Below are positions 15,001 through 27,000 of a stretch of 32,184 nt of DNA, one piece after another (position 1 is the first letter of the stretch; each line of letters begins with the position of its first letter). Origin of the DNA: Spirochaetota bacterium (GTDB taxonomy: Bacteria > Spirochaetota > UBA4802 > JAFGDQ01); contig JAZDKB010000054.1 of the NCBI GenBank assembly GCA_043803405.1, positions 1 through 32,184 of the forward strand, given 5' to 3'. A program made the position numbers.

Positions 15001-18000
15001 AAAAAAATCCACTCTGCGGTGGATTGTCGGTTTTACTCCTACCGCAGAAAAACACGCAGCAGGAGTCATCAGCTAAAATAGCGTTTATGAGGGGGACTCC
15101 ATCCCCGATTATTAATTAACAGAAGTATTATTATAAAGCTTAATAAATTTTTGATCGTCATAAGTCAAGATAAATTTATCTGTCAAAAAGATACTTCGGA
15201 CAACTCCGTTGACCAAATTATCTTCTCTCTTACCTTTAAGTTAGCCTTTCATTTTTAATCTTTCAGCAATACAAAAGATAAGTTGCCGTTTACCTCATCC
15301 CTGCTTCGGGTCGAGATTGCGGTCAAGCCAATACTTTAACGCTGGCTTGCCCGCAAACTCTCCCCTTATTGTTCGCAAAAGGCAGCATGACAATTATTTT
15401 TCTTCTGTAAACGTCTCCCTCCTCACCCCCACCATGGCAAAGGTCGCATTGTGGTGTTTATCCCCTGCACGTGGTAGCCAGATTATACTGTAATATATGC
15501 TCTGTTTTTCTGTTTCTATTTTCTTGTGCCGGCCGACATTTTATCTGCTACATGCCCCCTTTAGTGTAAATCTTGTCTATCATTGTTGATGGTCACATTG
15601 ACATAACGCAAGTTATGGTAAGTTACCCTCATTGTTTGTTTTTTCTGCTTCTTAATGCTTTGCTTTCGGGCATCTTCCCATAACTGGCGTTATATCACAT
15701 TGCCGGGCTACGCAATCGCGTTATTTGTTTTCTTATTGCTTCGCCTCGGCAATGAACCTCCCGTAAGTCTTTTTTTACGAGTTCGCGCGGGGGCAGGGCA
15801 GGGTGCTGATCCTCGCATATATTACAGTATAATCTGGCTTTTTAAACCCCACCCGCCCAGTCGGGCAATTCGTATATCTTCCTAAAGCGGGTTCGTGCCG
15901 CACGTCCGTGTGCGGCACTTGCTCGGCTTCCTGCCTCGCAACCCTTAGTCTATCAGTTTTTGTCCGTCTGTCTGCTTTCGTTTTTGCCCTCCTTCCCGGG
16001 TGCAGGGGATAGAGTTTGCTGTTTTTGCTCCGGAGGAGAGGTGGGGGTGAGGAGGGAGATGGGTAGTTCCCGGACGCAGCTTCTTTCGCCGGTGCGTCGC
16101 TTCTGTTTCGCTTGTTTTGTTTTCTTTGCTGTTGCTTCGCTCTTATGCCCGCCCACCCTTTAAATGTAAGTTTTGAAAGCCTGGCCGGTGTCTACTTTTC
16201 TTTTTGTCTTTCTTTCCTGAAAGCCCGCCGGAGTACAGCCCCGCTCATTCCTGGGGGCTTTGGTAAAGTTTTAAAAACCGTCCTGCCCTGGAAAAACCAG
16301 TTCAGGCCGGTATTTTAATCTTCTTTTATTTTTTTCCAGGAGTCCGCGGGGCAGTACACCGGCTTGTCTTGTTAATTTAGTTTTTTTGTGATCCGGCCAG
16401 TCTTTAAAAACTCTCATCGCCCTAAAAGCAGTAAAAGCTAATAAATAGATTTTTTAAAATTTTACTCTTCTCAGATTGCTTTATACAGCGTTTAAAAAAG
16501 TAGCCAAGGGGGAAAGGGCAGGGGATTACTTATCTTCCGGCATGTTTATATTGTGTTTCATGCAGTAAAGGGCGGCTTTCCTCAGAAAGTCCCCGATCTT
16601 AATTCCCTTATCAATGCAGTAATGTGAAATATTTTTGTGTTCCTCAGAGGTGAGCTGCACAGTCGGGCGCTTCATGTTGTCGTATTGGTTCTTCTTATCT
16701 TTCATAACTTATTTATATATCGGCAGGTTTGCAGGGTCAATTAAAAAAAACGTTTAAACGTTAAAAAAGTTGTTGACGTGTAAACGTGTAAACGTGTATA
16801 AATAATCATGTAATAAATCAAACAAGGAGGTATTTACATGAGCGTCAGTTACAAATCAAAAGAAAACATTCAGGGAATGACCGGCGGCCTTCTGTATTTT
16901 CTTGACAGTTACTGTGATGTGCTTACGGAGTCCAAGGCTTTTAAGGGCGTTAAAAAATGGGAAGGCGAACGCGAAGGATTGGAAGTACTTTTTATTTGCT
17001 GGCTTATGTTCCGCATGTGGGTCGCTAACAAGGTTGCTTACGCTGTTCAGTATAGTGAAAGCGTGGACCTTCATGAAGAAATCCCGGATATAGACCCCGT
17101 ATTTATTGAGCCTTCAGAACTTGCCGCCGATCTCCGTAACCTGAATTACAACATTTACACGAACGGCGGCCAGTGCTGGATGGATCACGAGTGGCATTCT
17201 GCTTTTAAGGAAATAGCCGATCGCATTAAAGCCATTTCGGAGAAGATGCCAGCCGGAAACCTGCTGAGAGTTGTTTAAAAAATAATGTAGTATGGCAGGA
17301 GTGAATTTTTATATCGTACGATATAAAAATTCACTCGTTTTTTATTAACAACATTTTATTTAATCATAGAGGTGATGAGATGCAGCCCGTTCAGGAATAC
17401 AAAGAACTTTCAAGAGCGTTCGATTATTATAATAAAAAACTTTTCAGCGGGGAAATCCCGCCGGCAATAATTACCCTCAGAGGGAAAAAATCAATCAACG
17501 GCTTTTTTCGTTTCCAGTCATTCACCGGCAGGAACGGAAATTCAGGTGAGCGGCTGGACGAGATAGCCCTCAATCCTGAGAATTTTCTCAGATCTGAGAA
17601 AGAAGTCCTCTCAACGCTGGTTCATGAAATGTGTCATGCCTGGCAATATCATTTCGGAAAGAAATCCAGAAAGACAGCATATCATGATAATGAATGGGCA
17701 AAGTGCATGAAGTCAGTCGGGCTGGTCCCTTCCGATACAGGCGAGCCTGGCGGAAGCATGACAGGGCAGGGGATGACCCATTACATAGAGGAAGGCGGAC
17801 GTTTCGACAGGTGTACTGCCGAGCTGCTCGGATCAGGCTGGAAGCTCAATTATACGCGTGAGAGCGATCCGGAAGGGATCGCGAAAAAAAAGAGGGAAAC
17901 AAAAACAAAATACTCATGTCCTGGGTGTGGAGTCAATGCCTGGGGAAAACTCGGAATAAATATTGTTTGCGGTGACTGTGAAGAAGTAATGGAGGCACAG

Positions 18001-24000: not shown

Positions 24001-27000
24001 ATATTCATGCCGGCAACAAGTAAAAATAAAGGGTAAACAATTCAATGATAGCCGGCACTCATTACGCTTTTTCCTGTCTACTGTGCACTGCGTCCGGCTT
24101 CGATTATCAGACAACGCTTGTTGCTTCTCTTGTCTCCCTGTTGCCGGACATAGATCATCCGGCCAGTTTGATTGGCCGTATCTTTTCAGGTCCGTCAAAG
24201 TATATTCTCAGAAAGTACGGGCATAGAACAGTTACTCATTCCGTCTTTGCCGTTTTGGCAGCAGCTCTTCTGTTCTCCCCTGCCCTATTCTTTAACCTTG
24301 CTTTATACTTTGCTGTTTTGCTTGCTTTTTCAAGTCATATATTCCTGGATATTTTCAACGTTGGCGGGGTCAAATTATTTGCTCCTGTTTCTCAGAAAGA
24401 ATATATTTCCTTCCATTCCCCGGGTCTCCGGATCCTTGTTTCTTCATGGAAAGAGTATGTTTTATTATTTCTAATCGTCTTGTCAGCCTTTATGCTTTCC
24501 GGTCAGGATTTCTCAATGCATAAAGCGGTGCGTTTTGTGAGTAAATATTTCTATAAGACTTATGATGCAGCGATTGTGGATTTTCAGGAAAACAGCAAAT
24601 ATCAATGTATTGCAAAGGTTTCGCATTTCGATCATGCAGGAAGAAAAAAAGTCGAGGAAGAATTCCCTGTCCTGAATCTTTTCCTTGAAAAGGCTTATCT
24701 GCTTAAAGACGGGAATCGGATTATCATAAAAAAAGCTGATATTGATGAGATAGAGATTGAATCAACAGTGAAACCTATCAGTGTTGAGGTCATTGATGGT
24801 AAGGATTTTAGTAAACTGTCTGCTATCCCTGCGGGTTCTTTTATTTCCGGGACAGTAAAGGTTAATGTCTGCCCTCTTGAGATCAAGAACAGCGATTATG
24901 TTAAAGTTGAGAAAGGTCTTAATGAGATTACTTTTTATCTTACTTATGCTACTCCGGATGAGCTTTCTGAGATCATCAGCATAGATAAGGCAAGGAAAGA
25001 CGAGATCGAAAAACTTCAATCCAAGCTATATTCACATCAGATCGATCTGCTCCGTAAGGAAGAAACTTCTTTAAAATCAAGGCTCTCTGTACTCAGGCGA
25101 AAAGGCTTTTACGCGAATTATGCTTCTATCACTTCTGTAAATAACGAGCTTAAAAAAGTTAGATCAAAGATCGAGTCTTTAAAGCTCAGTGTTAGTGCCG
25201 GTGCGGATCAGGATACGTTGAGGGAGATTGAAAAGCTTGACAGGGGATTTAAGGTGGAGTATAAGTTGTATATGTATAGAATGTAAGTTTTTTTTATTAA
25301 AAAGATTGACTTCCAGGCCGTATATATACATATATTAATTAACTAAGCCTGCTTTGCATGAACGCCGACTCCATGTCGTTGAAGGGTAACCTTCTTAGTG
25401 CAATGGCGGGCTTAATTTATTTTTACTGCTTAATGGATTTTTCGGCCCGTAATAATTCTTCCATTCCTTATAATTCTCTTTGTCATATAAATCAATTACA
25501 ACTGGTATTTTTTCAACGATGTAGTCATAATATCGAGTCTCTCCTTTTTCAAACACTCTCTGGACAGCCCAGCAAAAATAATCCGCTATGTTCAGCAAAG
25601 GCTCGGTAATGTGGTTCTGTACATTAAAAGCAATTTCAGCCTTCGCTGTTTTCCCGTTTGTATTCTTTAAAAATCTGCCTTCTGCTTTTTTTAAAGCAAA
25701 ATCAAGATTCGTATTTCGTGTGCTTTTGCCTCTCTCCGCGACATTTATTATCATTTTACGTTCTTTCTGAAACTTATTCTTTAATAGATGCGCGAGCAGA
25801 TCAGCATAAAATTCATTCTCTTTTCCATTATGTTTGCTGATGTAAAGACCGATTATTTTTCTTCCTACTACAGCTTCAAAAGTACAGTCTATTGTCTTGA
25901 TGAATTCAAAAAAGATTTTACGTACTTCGGGTATGTCATCGGTTGCATGAAAGAAAAATCCTTCTTTTACTGCTTTCTTCTGTATGCTCGGCACTCCTTT
26001 AAAGTAATCGTCTTTAATTACTTTATCCTGCAGTTCTTTGATCTTTTCTCTTATCGGCTCTAAAGGTTCTTTAAAATGGACAAGTCCGAGGATAAAACAT
26101 TTAGACACTCCTTCCTGTCCCAGGATGTTTATTTTTCCTTTTCCATAAAAGGTAGTGTCTCCGGCTTCGTCCAGGAAGCGGTAATCGTTCTTCATGGTTT
26201 TGATCTTTTAGGAAAATTTTTAAAGTCCTGCATGTTTGTATCTTTTTTTATTAAAGATCAAGTGTAATTTTAATGCATTAAGGCAGGTTTGAATCAGGAG
26301 ATGCTGGGGAAGGTTGAAAAACTGGATGAGGGGTTTGAAGTTAATTATAAACTGTATGTCTATGAACTTTAACGTTTCCTTTTATTTGTGTTTTTCTTCT
26401 TTGTGATTTTATTTACAAAATCATACTTCCCTAATCGAAATAAAACCATTATAAGTAAATTAACATGTGTAATATGATATTCTGAGTAGTCCATTAAACA
26501 ATGAGCAACTTTATTTCTTAAATTTAACCCTGATTTTTCTATAAGTACATATTTAAAAAATAATAAATCATCCTCATCAAAAACAGTTTTTATTGATTCT
26601 TCGTGTAAAAGCCAGTTTATATCTTTCTCCATTGTAATGTTACGACTCTTAGAATCTTTCGTTTGTATAAAAGTTGTTATTTTTGAAAAAGTGCATATAT
26701 CACGAATTAGTCCTTCTATTTTTAAAGTTAAAGAATCGATAGCAAGGATGAAATTTGGAATGTAGCTTTTCTCAGAAAAATATATCTGCATTTGTGTAAA
26801 ATATTCATTTAAACTTGGTACTATTAAATTTAACCAGTTATATGTAATTTTTCCTCGAGGAATATTCTTTGATATGGTTTTCCCAAACCAAGATTTTTCT
26901 TTAAAAAATTTTATAATTGCAAAAATATCTATTTTCCCTTCTTTCACAATTTTTAAAAAAATGGTATCAATTAAAATTCGTTTTTCAAGCTGAATGTCCC

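Follow-up and report, generated by a model that had tools for sequence, protein, structure and literature searches.

The window analysed here is the whole of contig C54, a 32,184-nt stretch of spirochaete DNA, and the features on which the following account depends are given in map order.

1..141 and 32044..32184: terminal direct repeat, exactly identical, the assembly overlap of a circular molecule
2067..3524, + strand: 485-aa lambda-O-like candidate replication initiator (PHROGs 'replication initiation O-like')
15116..16525: gene-free stretch with nested perfect inverted repeats (15414-15433/16040-16059, 15459-15470/16000-16011, 15476-15500/15815-15839)
16526..16705, - strand: uncalled gene for a 59-aa ribbon-helix-helix (RHH) protein, NikA/MobA-like (NF041264 MobA, E 2.7e-4)
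16706..16837: divergent promoter/operator, four ACGT-N-TA-N-ACGT-type repeats overlapping a TTGACG -35 box
16838..17278, + strand: 146-aa backbone protein of unknown function, its position taken by DUF6573 proteins in other members of the family
19519..20592, + strand: ParA partition ATPase with an N-terminal extension (AAA_31, E 8e-35; ParA_partition, E 1.6e-25)
20592..21392, + strand: 266-aa putative centromere-binding ParA partner, from its position and a weak borfam_49 match (E 1.9e-8, below cut-off)
21685..22260, - strand, divergent from the cassette: 191-aa coiled-coil protein with an N-terminal hydrophobic segment, predicted to be exported or membrane-anchored
22280..22432, + strand: uncalled 50-aa helical protein, with a homologous small ORF at the same place in relatives
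22472..22499: 28-bp near-palindromic 11-6-11 site, inner part CAAAA-N6-TTT(T/C)G, right arm degenerate in C54
22633..24036, + strand: 467-aa fusion of a Xer-type tyrosine-recombinase catalytic domain (about 1-175), a linker, an AAA+ ATPase (about 205-400) and a C-terminal transmembrane hairpin (about 409-462)
24045..25286, + strand: 413-aa YdjM/DUF457 metal-dependent hydrolase membrane protein (domain at 1-150, beta-rich domain, long coiled-coil hairpin)
30481..32184, continuing at 1..1206, + strand: MmeI-type IIG restriction-methylase, 5' part first (MmeI_TRD/MmeI_C; REase_MTase_IIG, E 4e-132)

The preliminary description of this contig had it closing on itself with the MmeI gene split over its ends, and both points were borne out: the 141-nt exact end repeat occurs on C54 alone among the 54 contigs of its genome (G000), and the MmeI frame spanning the junction runs stop-free for 922 aa. 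Judged by assembly end overlaps, C54 is a plasmid that forms a circle of about 32 kb. Identical ends were found in four members of its family (141, 47, 67 and 127 nt). The related contigs of 30,536, 32,719 and 37,455 nt reported earlier were recovered, the second of them with 47 identical bases at its ends; further ones measure 30,433, 40,754, 42,013 and 66,891 nt, and the ends of the 42,013-nt contig share 67 bases. Of 119 other clusters among the matches listed, about 97 share 47-83% identity across 90% or more of the query, in keeping with what had been reported. Family-level matches come from 16 of the order's 122 genomes, its own included, and from 13 genera (previously 15 of 122 and 12), two genomes having two members apiece. 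The reported synteny likewise held, with a YdjM-like gene in 13 of 15 genome contigs and 50 of 59 metagenome loci and the 191-aa gene in 13 of 15 and 48 of 59, the missing neighbours belonging mostly to loci at contig ends. The fusion is universal (15/15 contigs, 59/59 loci) and the most conserved gene. Of the 15 contigs, 11 have a ParA-like gene, as do 28 of the 59 loci; cargo varies between members and is rich in defence genes. A search of 50,697 phage records gave no fusion at 80% cover or more, and none came up in 71 IMG/VR loci, where matches all stop by residue 221. With four assemblies closed into circles, constant partition genes, variable cargo and no fusion found in the phage collections, the earlier proposal of a new plasmid family that has this block for its hallmark is supported, the family being found in one order of Spirochaetota. 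On sequence grounds, its constant backbone is the ParA/partner pair and a four-gene cassette encoding the 191-aa, 50-aa, fusion and YdjM-type proteins.

The partition genes had been described as a Borrelia-type pair. The ParA assignment stands, and the 266-aa protein, with homologues in four elements at 47-60% identity, is probably its centromere-binding partner; the Borrelia label was not confirmed, resting as it does on a single borfam_49 match that scores 34.9 bits where the cut-off is 60. The cp32-type plasmids of Borrelia are circles of about 30 kb with PF32/PF49 maintenance genes, and the present family resembles them in size, in circularity, in its spirochaete hosts, in the co-residence of two members and in the weak PF49-like match. 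It differs in having no PF50 or PF57/62 matches and no phage genes, in its PF49 score below the cut-off, and in a hallmark cassette that was not found outside this order among 401 Spirochaetota genomes sampled.

The domains earlier assigned to the fusion were confirmed, with Phage_integrase at residues 10-167 (E 1.6e-31) and weak AAA_16/AAA/ATPase_2/MCM matches at 208-331. The top families of the recombinase part are XerA, XerC and XerD (E 2e-41 to 1.5e-35), and the AF2 model (pLDDT 80.6) has its best structural match in XerA (5hxy, E 8e-12). Residues R41, H127, R130, H153, Y162 and the lysine of GKGxKER are invariant in 27 fusion sequences, so that all catalytic residues of Xer-type tyrosine recombinases are retained. 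Walker A and B motifs are intact, and a sensor-2-like motif, GD-N-x-K/R-x-A, is present. All 27 fusions end in a hydrophobic C-terminus with a conserved predicted transmembrane hairpin, a feature new here and overlooked in the earlier account. The ATPase part bears weak profile and fold likeness to RFC and Orc/Cdc6, and as far as such matches go it is an AAA+ ATPase of the Orc/RFC/STAND kind rather than an FtsK/VirD4-type translocase or a RecA-fold motor.

In structure searches the ATPase part also resembles NLR resistosomes and CED-4. Together with an NB-ARC match in a distant relative that passes its cut-off (26.5 bits, the threshold being 23.5), weak PADLOC matches (PDC-S01, E 1.9e-5; Avs4, E 4e-4) and the plentiful defence cargo, this would suit a defence, exclusion or addiction system, in which a STAND-like NTPase senses foreign DNA through the recombinase-like domain and triggers the membrane hydrolase. 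We consider this distinctly improbable, as C-terminal sensor repeats are absent, the recombinase residues are all kept, a conserved candidate cognate site lies on the element itself, and the cassette, in contrast to the changing defence cargo, has a fixed position beside the partition genes and is never missing from a member.

The protein after the fusion was correctly described as having a YdjM domain; its metal ligands (His/Asp motifs) are invariant in 28 sequences. The 191-aa protein had no family match in Pfam, PHROGs and other profile searches, and a hydrophobic segment at the N-terminus, shared by 27 of the 28 homologues, marks it, for the first time here, as a predicted exported or membrane-anchored protein. 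A small ORF with an MKPVV…LLKM motif in 28 of 30 loci (27 relatives and C54 itself) makes the 50-aa gene, by its conserved position, a fourth constant cassette member, also new here. With all four products predicted to be membrane-bound, exported or membrane-tethered, a DNA transfer or mobilisation apparatus may be imagined, the recombinase acting as an atypical relaxase, the ATPase as a membrane coupling motor, and the YdjM-like and coiled-coil proteins spanning the envelope. The cassette makes up half of a 6.46-kb Rep-bearing circle, the usual place of a Mob module; the NikA/MobA-like RHH protein belongs to the backbone; and a known relaxase is absent, the Bacteroidota plasmids discussed below being typed non-mobilizable by PLSDB. 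Nevertheless, searches against conjugation and secretion families found no similarity, the ATPase is not of the translocase kind, a symmetric 11-6-11 site suits strand exchange more than a single nic site, and the C-terminal part of the YdjM-like protein drew no specific match in a fold search, so we regard transfer as quite unlikely.

The 28-bp site, described here for the first time, is a candidate recombination core site of the fusion. In all 30 loci examined it aligns at one position upstream of the fusion gene, and it is single in 15 of 16 contigs. Its arms co-vary, with 224 of 297 pairs complementary against 201.8 +/- 4.5 in shuffles, none of 2000 reaching the observed value under a control that ignores relatedness. 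Of 13 distant loci, 3 have the identical core, where 0.025 would be expected. As a perfect palindrome the core stands 226 nt upstream of a fusion that is 27% identical (L128), and 29 nt past the fusion stop on the Flavobacterium plasmid pA5BP1, some 9.6 kb away from the gene annotated as Rep. Among the observations that count against a role in resolution, the exact core is absent from the other 10 distant loci within the sequence covered, only one of 27 sites is weaker than that of C54 (17.9 bits, with 6/11 of the right arm complementary), and one family member sits on an 884,482-nt contig. This last member, with a fusion 58% identical and ParA, SNase, RHH and YdjM genes around it, could mean that the fusion is an integrase moving the element in and out of the chromosome, the circular contigs being excised forms; the usual integrases are indeed tyrosine recombinases. 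However, its 28-bp site is whole and in the usual position, with no hybrid ends, the other 58 of 59 loci lie on contigs of at most 67 kb, ParA is constant in the family, each element has one site, and the near-closed genomes of the order all lack the fusion, which leaves integration the least probable of the readings weighed here.

The fusion had been read as a replication/resolution protein on an element with no recognisable initiator. The resolution half fits the conserved site beside the gene; the replication half is not supported. C54 itself encodes the 485-aa O-like protein, contrary to the claimed absence of an initiator, with matches to phrog_18020 (E 1e-11, residues 37-110), phrog_678 (E 9.6e-5) and TIGR01610 (E 0.0088), an assignment based on about 75 residues. 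It has homologues on five other family elements, and iterons looked for near its gene were not found. The fusion and YdjM pair, with the same core site, also occurs on sequenced Bacteroidota plasmids with their own Rep, pA5BP1 among them; DnaG-zinc-ribbon/Toprim and VapE primase-helicases lie beside the pair in 3 of 3 loci scanned; and the 6.46-kb circle pairs it with a G2P-like Rep (Phage_CRI). Because separate Rep-type proteins accompany the pair, the cassette is probably not the starter of plasmid replication.

The contrary reading, that the fusion is the family's initiator, its AAA+ part melting an origin at or near the site, its recombinase domain binding or nicking DNA and the membrane proteins anchoring the replisome, draws on the fusion being universal and most conserved, on its weak RFC and Orc/Cdc6 likeness, on the site immediately upstream of the gene, a common place for origins, on distant relatives with a primase-helicase and then the fusion gene in one operon, and on Pfam and PHROGs recognising no Rep on six of seven other long contigs (the seventh, G059_C20, lay outside the scan), elements in which the fusion may still act as initiator. 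Set against Orc1/Cdc6 and RFC-type proteins, the fusion shares Walker motifs and the sensor-2-like motif but scores far under family cut-offs (TIGR02928 orc1/cdc6, 16 bits against 181) and has a membrane hairpin where Orc/Cdc6 has a winged helix. The site has recombinase-core geometry, inverted arms and a 6-bp spacer, rather than iterons. Moreover, rolling-circle synthesis cannot be primed from the ends that tyrosine recombinases leave on cleavage, namely a 5'-OH and a 3'-phosphotyrosine. We rank this reading first among the alternatives, yet unlikely.

Nor does the gene-free stretch serve as a family origin, as had been suggested, because it is common to one congener only. No counterpart was found in 15 relative contigs; pieces at 73-87% identity occur only in the same-genus genome G003, where the repeat arms are not kept. 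The nested perfect repeats are real (20, 12 and 25 nt) and the stretch folds with a z of -9.4, without an Rfam match, its left edge being the leader/promoter side of a fluoride-riboswitch enolase gene. By this distribution the 1.4-kb stretch is a lineage-specific add-on, and 15116-16837, called the longest of the genome, is the fourth longest by a crude measure (no ORF of at least 90 aa). The adjoining control region fared better. The uncalled gene beside the ACGT-type repeats encodes 59 aa (previously 60), its L112 homologue has a NikA-like match (E 2.8e-6), it occurs in 6 of 15 contigs and 11 of 59 loci, and the operator is conserved in 9 of 9 elements having the RHH/146-aa pair. The RHH protein is a probable repressor, and would act on the divergent promoter at 16706-16837.

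Multimer resolution has familiar counterparts in Cre/loxP of P1 and ResD/rfsF of F, whose enzymes are two-domain, soluble and ATP-independent. C54 likewise has, as these low-copy plasmids do, a tyrosine recombinase, a site beside its gene and ParA-type partition, but the fusion carries an ATPase and a membrane hairpin. To our knowledge, simple resolvases need no ATPase, membrane anchor or hydrolase partner, so resolution alone leaves these extra parts of the cassette unexplained. The single-recombinase systems (XerS/difSL of streptococci, XerH/difH, archaeal XerA/dif) are close in their best-scoring models and structure and in having one recombinase gene adjoining a single near-palindromic site, whose 11-nt arms are separated by 6 nt; the XerS gene is described as genetically linked to its dif-like site (PMC2731167). 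The fusion differs in lacking an N-terminal core-binding domain, in its added ATPase and hairpin, in being plasmid-borne rather than chromosomal, and in its constant partners (YdjM-like, 191-aa and 50-aa proteins). XerCD with FtsK, which is described as controlling Xer recombination (PMC2965235), is similar in outline, a membrane-anchored ATPase beside a Xer-type enzyme, whereas here the ATPase is fused in cis, is not a RecA-fold motor, and has no identified gamma-domain equivalent.

We therefore give an even chance to the cassette being a membrane-tethered, ATPase-gated site-specific recombination module for multimer resolution, with replication started by separate proteins that can be exchanged, a part probably played in C54 by the 485-aa lambda-O-like protein. 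The fusion would sit at the inner membrane, held there with the YdjM-like protein, and would bind the 11-6-11 site as a homodimer or tetramer. Strand exchange between two site copies on a plasmid multimer would restore monomers, and the AAA+ module would gate catalysis, as FtsK gates the chromosomal Xer enzymes. For this plasmid family, the task of the cassette would then most likely be to keep plasmid copies separate.

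The observation in the preliminary description of a recombinase and an AAA+ ATPase joined in one 467-aa protein is essentially right, with Phage_integrase matching residues 10-167 (E 1.6e-31) and weak P-loop/AAA+ matches following at 208-331. Its account of the protein omitted the last 55 residues, which form a strongly hydrophobic, highly conserved hairpin in 27 of 27 aligned sequences. As judged from residue conservation, the Xer-type domain of this fusion is catalytically complete and its ATPase is complete too; a predicted membrane hairpin follows them. Among 27 aligned family members, whose identity to the query is 29-83%, little or no variation is seen at R41, the lysine of the GKGxKER motif (K65/K68), H127, R130, H153 and Y162, and Walker A (kept as G232-x-x-G-x-G-K238-S), the Walker B aspartate (D304) and several lid residues are invariant. 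The N-terminal core-binding (SAM-like) domain is absent: the catalytic domain begins at residue 10, there is no Phage_int_SAM match, and Xer models align to the fusion only from their position ~90-107 onward. Because only the catalytic half is there, the nearest NCBIfam models of the first domain all score far under their cut-offs (XerA_Arch 142 bits versus 220, XerC 126 versus 335, XerD 123 versus 330).

In an AlphaFold model of the fusion (pLDDT 80.6), the first domain retrieves XerA, IntI4 and XerH as structural matches and the second retrieves NLR resistosomes, CED-4 and an RFC small subunit; the last of its helices is a membrane helix at 416-458. Profile searches gave low-significance matches to ClpC/ClpB, Avs4 and clamp loaders, and in a language-model atlas the ATPase-plus-hairpin part adjoins clusters of stand-alone proteins named 'AAA ATPase, possibly membrane bound'. 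We place the ATPase in the Orc/RFC/STAND branch of AAA+. Membership of the Orc1/Cdc6 family itself was rejected, as TIGR02928 (orc1/cdc6) reaches 16 bits against a cut-off of 181 (E 0.0033) and the fusion has no C-terminal winged helix. A STAND NTPase of the NB-ARC/Avs kind was rejected as well, given that the protein ends ~60 residues past the ATPase lid with no C-terminal sensor repeats; the NB-ARC cut-off is passed only in a distant relative.

The fusion gene lies in a four-gene cassette, together with a divergent 191-aa gene upstream, an uncalled 50-aa gene and a YdjM-like gene. The positions of its parts are as follows:

22280-22432, uncalled 50-aa gene between the 191-aa gene and the fusion, its product kept in 28 of 30 loci, window included
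22472-22499, candidate 28-bp core site
22633-24036 (+), 467-aa recombinase/AAA+ fusion
24045-25286 (+), 413-aa YdjM-like protein

The YdjM-like product, a conserved membrane hydrolase partner, matches PF04307 at 80.8 bits (cut-off 29) and keeps its metal ligands intact: none of eight residues (H6, D35, D37, H38, H60, H65, H98 and D102) varies across 28 sequences. Its C-terminal part, a beta-rich domain followed by a coiled-coil hairpin, has no Foldseek match at E <=0.001, and VIA-align returned only generic coiled-coil and small-barrel matches (Z up to 8.3). Complex prediction for fusion residues 200-467 with the YdjM-like protein gave 0.31 versus a mark of 0.32, with controls at 0.00. In 27 of 28 homologues the 191-aa protein begins with a hydrophobic segment, after which comes a coiled coil, and it is therefore taken to be exported or membrane-anchored and not a DNA-binding partner.

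Right after the 50-aa gene lies a noncoding element that is alignable in 30 of 30 loci. At its core stand two inverted 11-nt arms around a 6-nt spacer, 28 nt in all, with a nearly invariant inner CAAAA/TTTTG, so that by arm length, spacer length (6-8 nt for dif-like sites) and conserved position beside a recombinase gene this is a candidate core site of the dif-like kind. The outer arm positions co-vary: 224 of 297 pairs are complementary versus 201.8 +/- 4.5 expected, with 0 of 2000 shuffles as high, in a control that deals right arms to other loci and leaves the relatedness among loci in the statistic. Another 10-14 nt upstream there is a third arm, in direct orientation. In 15 of 16 contigs, several of which had themselves fed the profile, the site is present once, 40-170 nt ahead of the fusion, and nowhere else, the most divergent contig having no site at threshold; the C54 copy is among the weakest. 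We also considered that the site might be a look-alike of the host dif, and a profile scan of the source genome gave chance-level matches only.

One conserved palindromic site per element beside a recombinase gene suggests how the system may work. The fusion would act on the site and thereby resolve plasmid multimers, as Cre does at loxP and XerS at difSL, and the AAA+ module and the membrane partners may license the recombination. Of the function proposed earlier, replication and resolution by a single protein, the conserved site beside the fusion gene thus favors the resolution part; separate initiators that co-occur with the cassette speak against the initiation part.

The cassette is the constant portion of an otherwise variable family. 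Of the 119 other clusters listed, about 97 hold full-length relatives at 47-83% identity to the fusion, and a library clustered at 50% identity yielded only 19 representatives beyond E 1e-30. Within the order of the source genome, 16 of 122 genomes, own genome included, from 13 genera have family-level matches, and in a phylum sample of 401 genomes all 10 matches at E 1e-70 come from this order. The fusion was not found in phage records or IMG/VR. Two genomes hold two copies each on separate contigs (G059:C28 and C20; G114:C112 and C238), which points to related plasmids that coexist or to a binning effect. The 191-aa gene stands divergently upstream of the fusion on 13 of 15 genome contigs and at 48 of 59 metagenome loci, the YdjM-like gene downstream on 13 of 15 and at 50 of 59, and most missing neighbors coincide with contig ends. 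A ParA gene lies a few kb upstream on 11 of the 15 contigs and at 28 of the 59 loci. When the genes of the contigs were clustered, only the fusion, 191-aa, YdjM-like and ParA genes reached at least 12 contigs. C54 lacks one accessory backbone gene, a staphylococcal-nuclease homologue often beside a ~145-aa protein, that five family elements carry:

G019_C39, 470-982
G114_C238, 11003-11515
G116_C39, 5712-6281
G114_C112, 368-940
L083, 516-1070

The longer family contigs measure 30,433, 30,536, 32,719, 37,455, 40,754, 42,013 and 66,891 nt, two with end overlaps (47 and 67 nt), and the 59 metagenome loci include nine contigs of 25-50 kb, three of 50-100 kb and one of 884 kb. On this last, positions 758045-779421 of 884,482 nt (locus L083) hold the whole backbone: SNase, ParA, its partner, a 190-aa gene, the fusion, the YdjM-like gene and the RHH gene, which encodes a ribbon-helix-helix protein. 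Three explanations are conceivable: integration of a copy, a large replicon with this backbone as its base, or a chimera.

The earlier reading of the family as plasmids is supported by the end overlaps, ParA and the variable, defense-gene-rich cargo. Neither phage structural genes nor genes for conjugation turned up on family contigs. Four family contigs have end overlaps in assembly, as would a closed circle separate from the chromosome. C54 carries an exact 141-nt direct repeat at both ends, the only such overlap among the 54 contigs of its genome, and once one repeat copy is removed, an MmeI-type IIG gene of 922 aa runs stop-free across the junction; overlap and read-through gene together give it the look of a circular molecule in a de Bruijn assembly. 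Its G+C of 0.381 falls within the range of the genome's contigs (0.33-0.43). Three public DNA runs contain C54 words, 6-14% of them each, as Logan contigs, which over 12185-32184 are pieces of 150-650 nt at depth 2-7; they yielded no junction, inversion joint or copy number. In X3 (Logan contigs) a single weak joint skips 18342-19416, one side being 22 nt. The run search returned no RNA runs holding C54. Of partition and replication genes, C54 has ParA and a weak O-like initiator candidate; its partition pair (ParA and partner) does not qualify as Borrelia PF32/PF49, with borfam_49 at 34.9 bits versus a cut-off of 60 and ParA matching generic ParA models only. Defense and addiction cargo flanks the cassette at 25395-30368 and 18696-19349, comprising DUF3800 (PADLOC DUF3800_VII), PDC-S39 (DUF7380/DUF4209), an HTH+SocA/Panacea protein and a Gp49(HigB-like)/HTH pair.

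Proteins of ~500 aa with the same three-part architecture exist elsewhere at 23-28% identity. Three PLSDB records cover at least 80% of the fusion query, all of them plasmids of cultured Bacteroidota: Spirosoma taeanense pTS (28,440 bp), one of Haliscomenobacter hydrossis (143,757 bp) and pA5BP1 of Flavobacterium sp. ANT_P5B (14,381 bp). In pA5BP1 and pTS the fusion gene adjoins a 'metal-dependent hydrolase' of ~420-430 aa. The exact 12-base site core occurs three times in 120 kb of 13 distant loci versus 0.025 expected, every time as a palindrome (10-11 of 11): 226 nt upstream of the fusion at metagenome locus L128, 29 nt past the fusion stop in pA5BP1, and far from the gene at L133.

C54 had been described as lacking a recognizable initiator. 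A 485-aa protein encoded at 2067-3524 (+) is a candidate for one, as two PHROGs named 'replication initiation O-like' match it (E 1e-11 and 9.6e-5) and, weakly, so does a lambda O N-terminal model; five other elements have a homologue of it no more than 10 kb from the cassette, and no iterons were found near the gene. The smallest member and natural minimal element is the close relative L112, whose contig of 6,587 nt overlaps itself at the ends by 127 nt, giving a 6.46-kb circle that carries the fusion (split over the ends), the YdjM-like, RHH, 191-aa and 50-aa genes and the site. Its 349-aa protein passes the Pfam cut-off for the filamentous-phage G2P (Phage_CRI) replication protein and has no homologues in other family loci. 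It also carries a 112-aa protein resembling the NrdD C-terminus. Plasmid pA5BP1 has its own annotated replication initiation protein and ParA, and at three metagenome loci of a distant branch a primase-helicase, with a DnaG zinc ribbon or Toprim plus a VapE-like domain, precedes the fusion and a YdjM-domain protein. Separate initiators thus stand alongside the cassette, and no fewer than four distinct replication solutions are found in its company. On six of the seven other long contigs (the seventh, G059_C20, lying outside the scan) no recognizable Rep was found. Tyrosine recombinases work through 3'-phosphotyrosine chemistry. Owing to this chemistry, the multiple replication solutions, the site geometry, and the ~9.6 kb between the pA5BP1 site and that plasmid's Rep gene, the fusion as initiator is the less likely reading overall, though it may hold for Rep-less members.

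The gene-free stretch at 15116-16525 had been proposed as the origin. Three perfect inverted repeats are nested within it, and its predicted folding is far stronger than that of shuffled sequences (z -9.4). No counterpart exists on relative contigs, and it is therefore not the origin of the family. Within the order, only the same-genus genome G003 shares pieces of it, at 73-87% identity on three small contigs, and the repeat arms are not kept there. These contigs (C3, C86 and C69) hold pieces of the stretch, a riboswitch region and the end of the O-like gene. The fusion was not found in G003 (90% complete), whose small contigs are probably a fragmented related plasmid with repeats breaking the assembly. 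Three other identities for the stretch were rejected: a large RNA (no Rfam match at E up to 1, no tRNA), an inverton (three arm pairs without common sequence) and a MITE (no further copies in the source genome). Beside the stretch, the gene for the 59-aa RHH protein (16526-16705, minus strand) and a 132-nt divergent region are kept in all 9 of the elements that have the pair. The region has four ACGT-N-TA-N-ACGT-type repeats over a TTGACG box, and we read the two as a putative repressor-operator unit.

At its left edge the stretch adjoins the fluoride riboswitch of the plasmid's enolase gene, one of three in the window (51-58 bits, gathering score 34):

12874-12934 (-), fluoride riboswitch
13108-13170 (+), fluoride riboswitch
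15053-15115 (-), fluoride riboswitch of the enolase gene

They precede, one each, the enolase, a 140-aa unknown and a long minus-strand operon for a 73-aa protein, a dynamin-like GTPase, a dual-specificity phosphatase, three MutS-domain-V paralogues and a HIT protein. CrcB/FluC was not among the genes seen, and the linked genes are a plasmid-borne fluoride response of unusual content.

We found no published description of the recombinase or cassette architecture in open-access papers and bioRxiv, and as far as these searches show both are undescribed. A broader reading, which we offer tentatively and regard as rather unlikely, is that the four genes form a hitherto undescribed membrane-embedded DNA-processing machine of plasmids in at least two phyla, in which a Xer-type active site, powered by its own AAA+ switch, is coupled to an envelope complex of a YdjM-type hydrolase and an exported coiled-coil protein. 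If so, the machine would do more than resolve multimers; for example, plasmid resolution and segregation might be coupled to the membrane or septum independently of FtsK, or the Rep-less members might use the machine to start replication or export DNA.

To our knowledge, the plasmid biology of these Spirochaetota and Bacteroidota groups is almost unknown. The fusion, the YdjM-like gene and the 28-bp site together provide a marker for plasmids in metagenomes of both phyla, and the partition pair, RHH operator, candidate resolution site and candidate initiator are backbone parts for vectors in uncultured spirochaetes. With Flavobacterium pA5BP1 and Spirosoma pTS as cultured handles on the cassette, a recombinase with a built-in ATPase and membrane anchor makes the question of Xer licensing testable in a single polypeptide.
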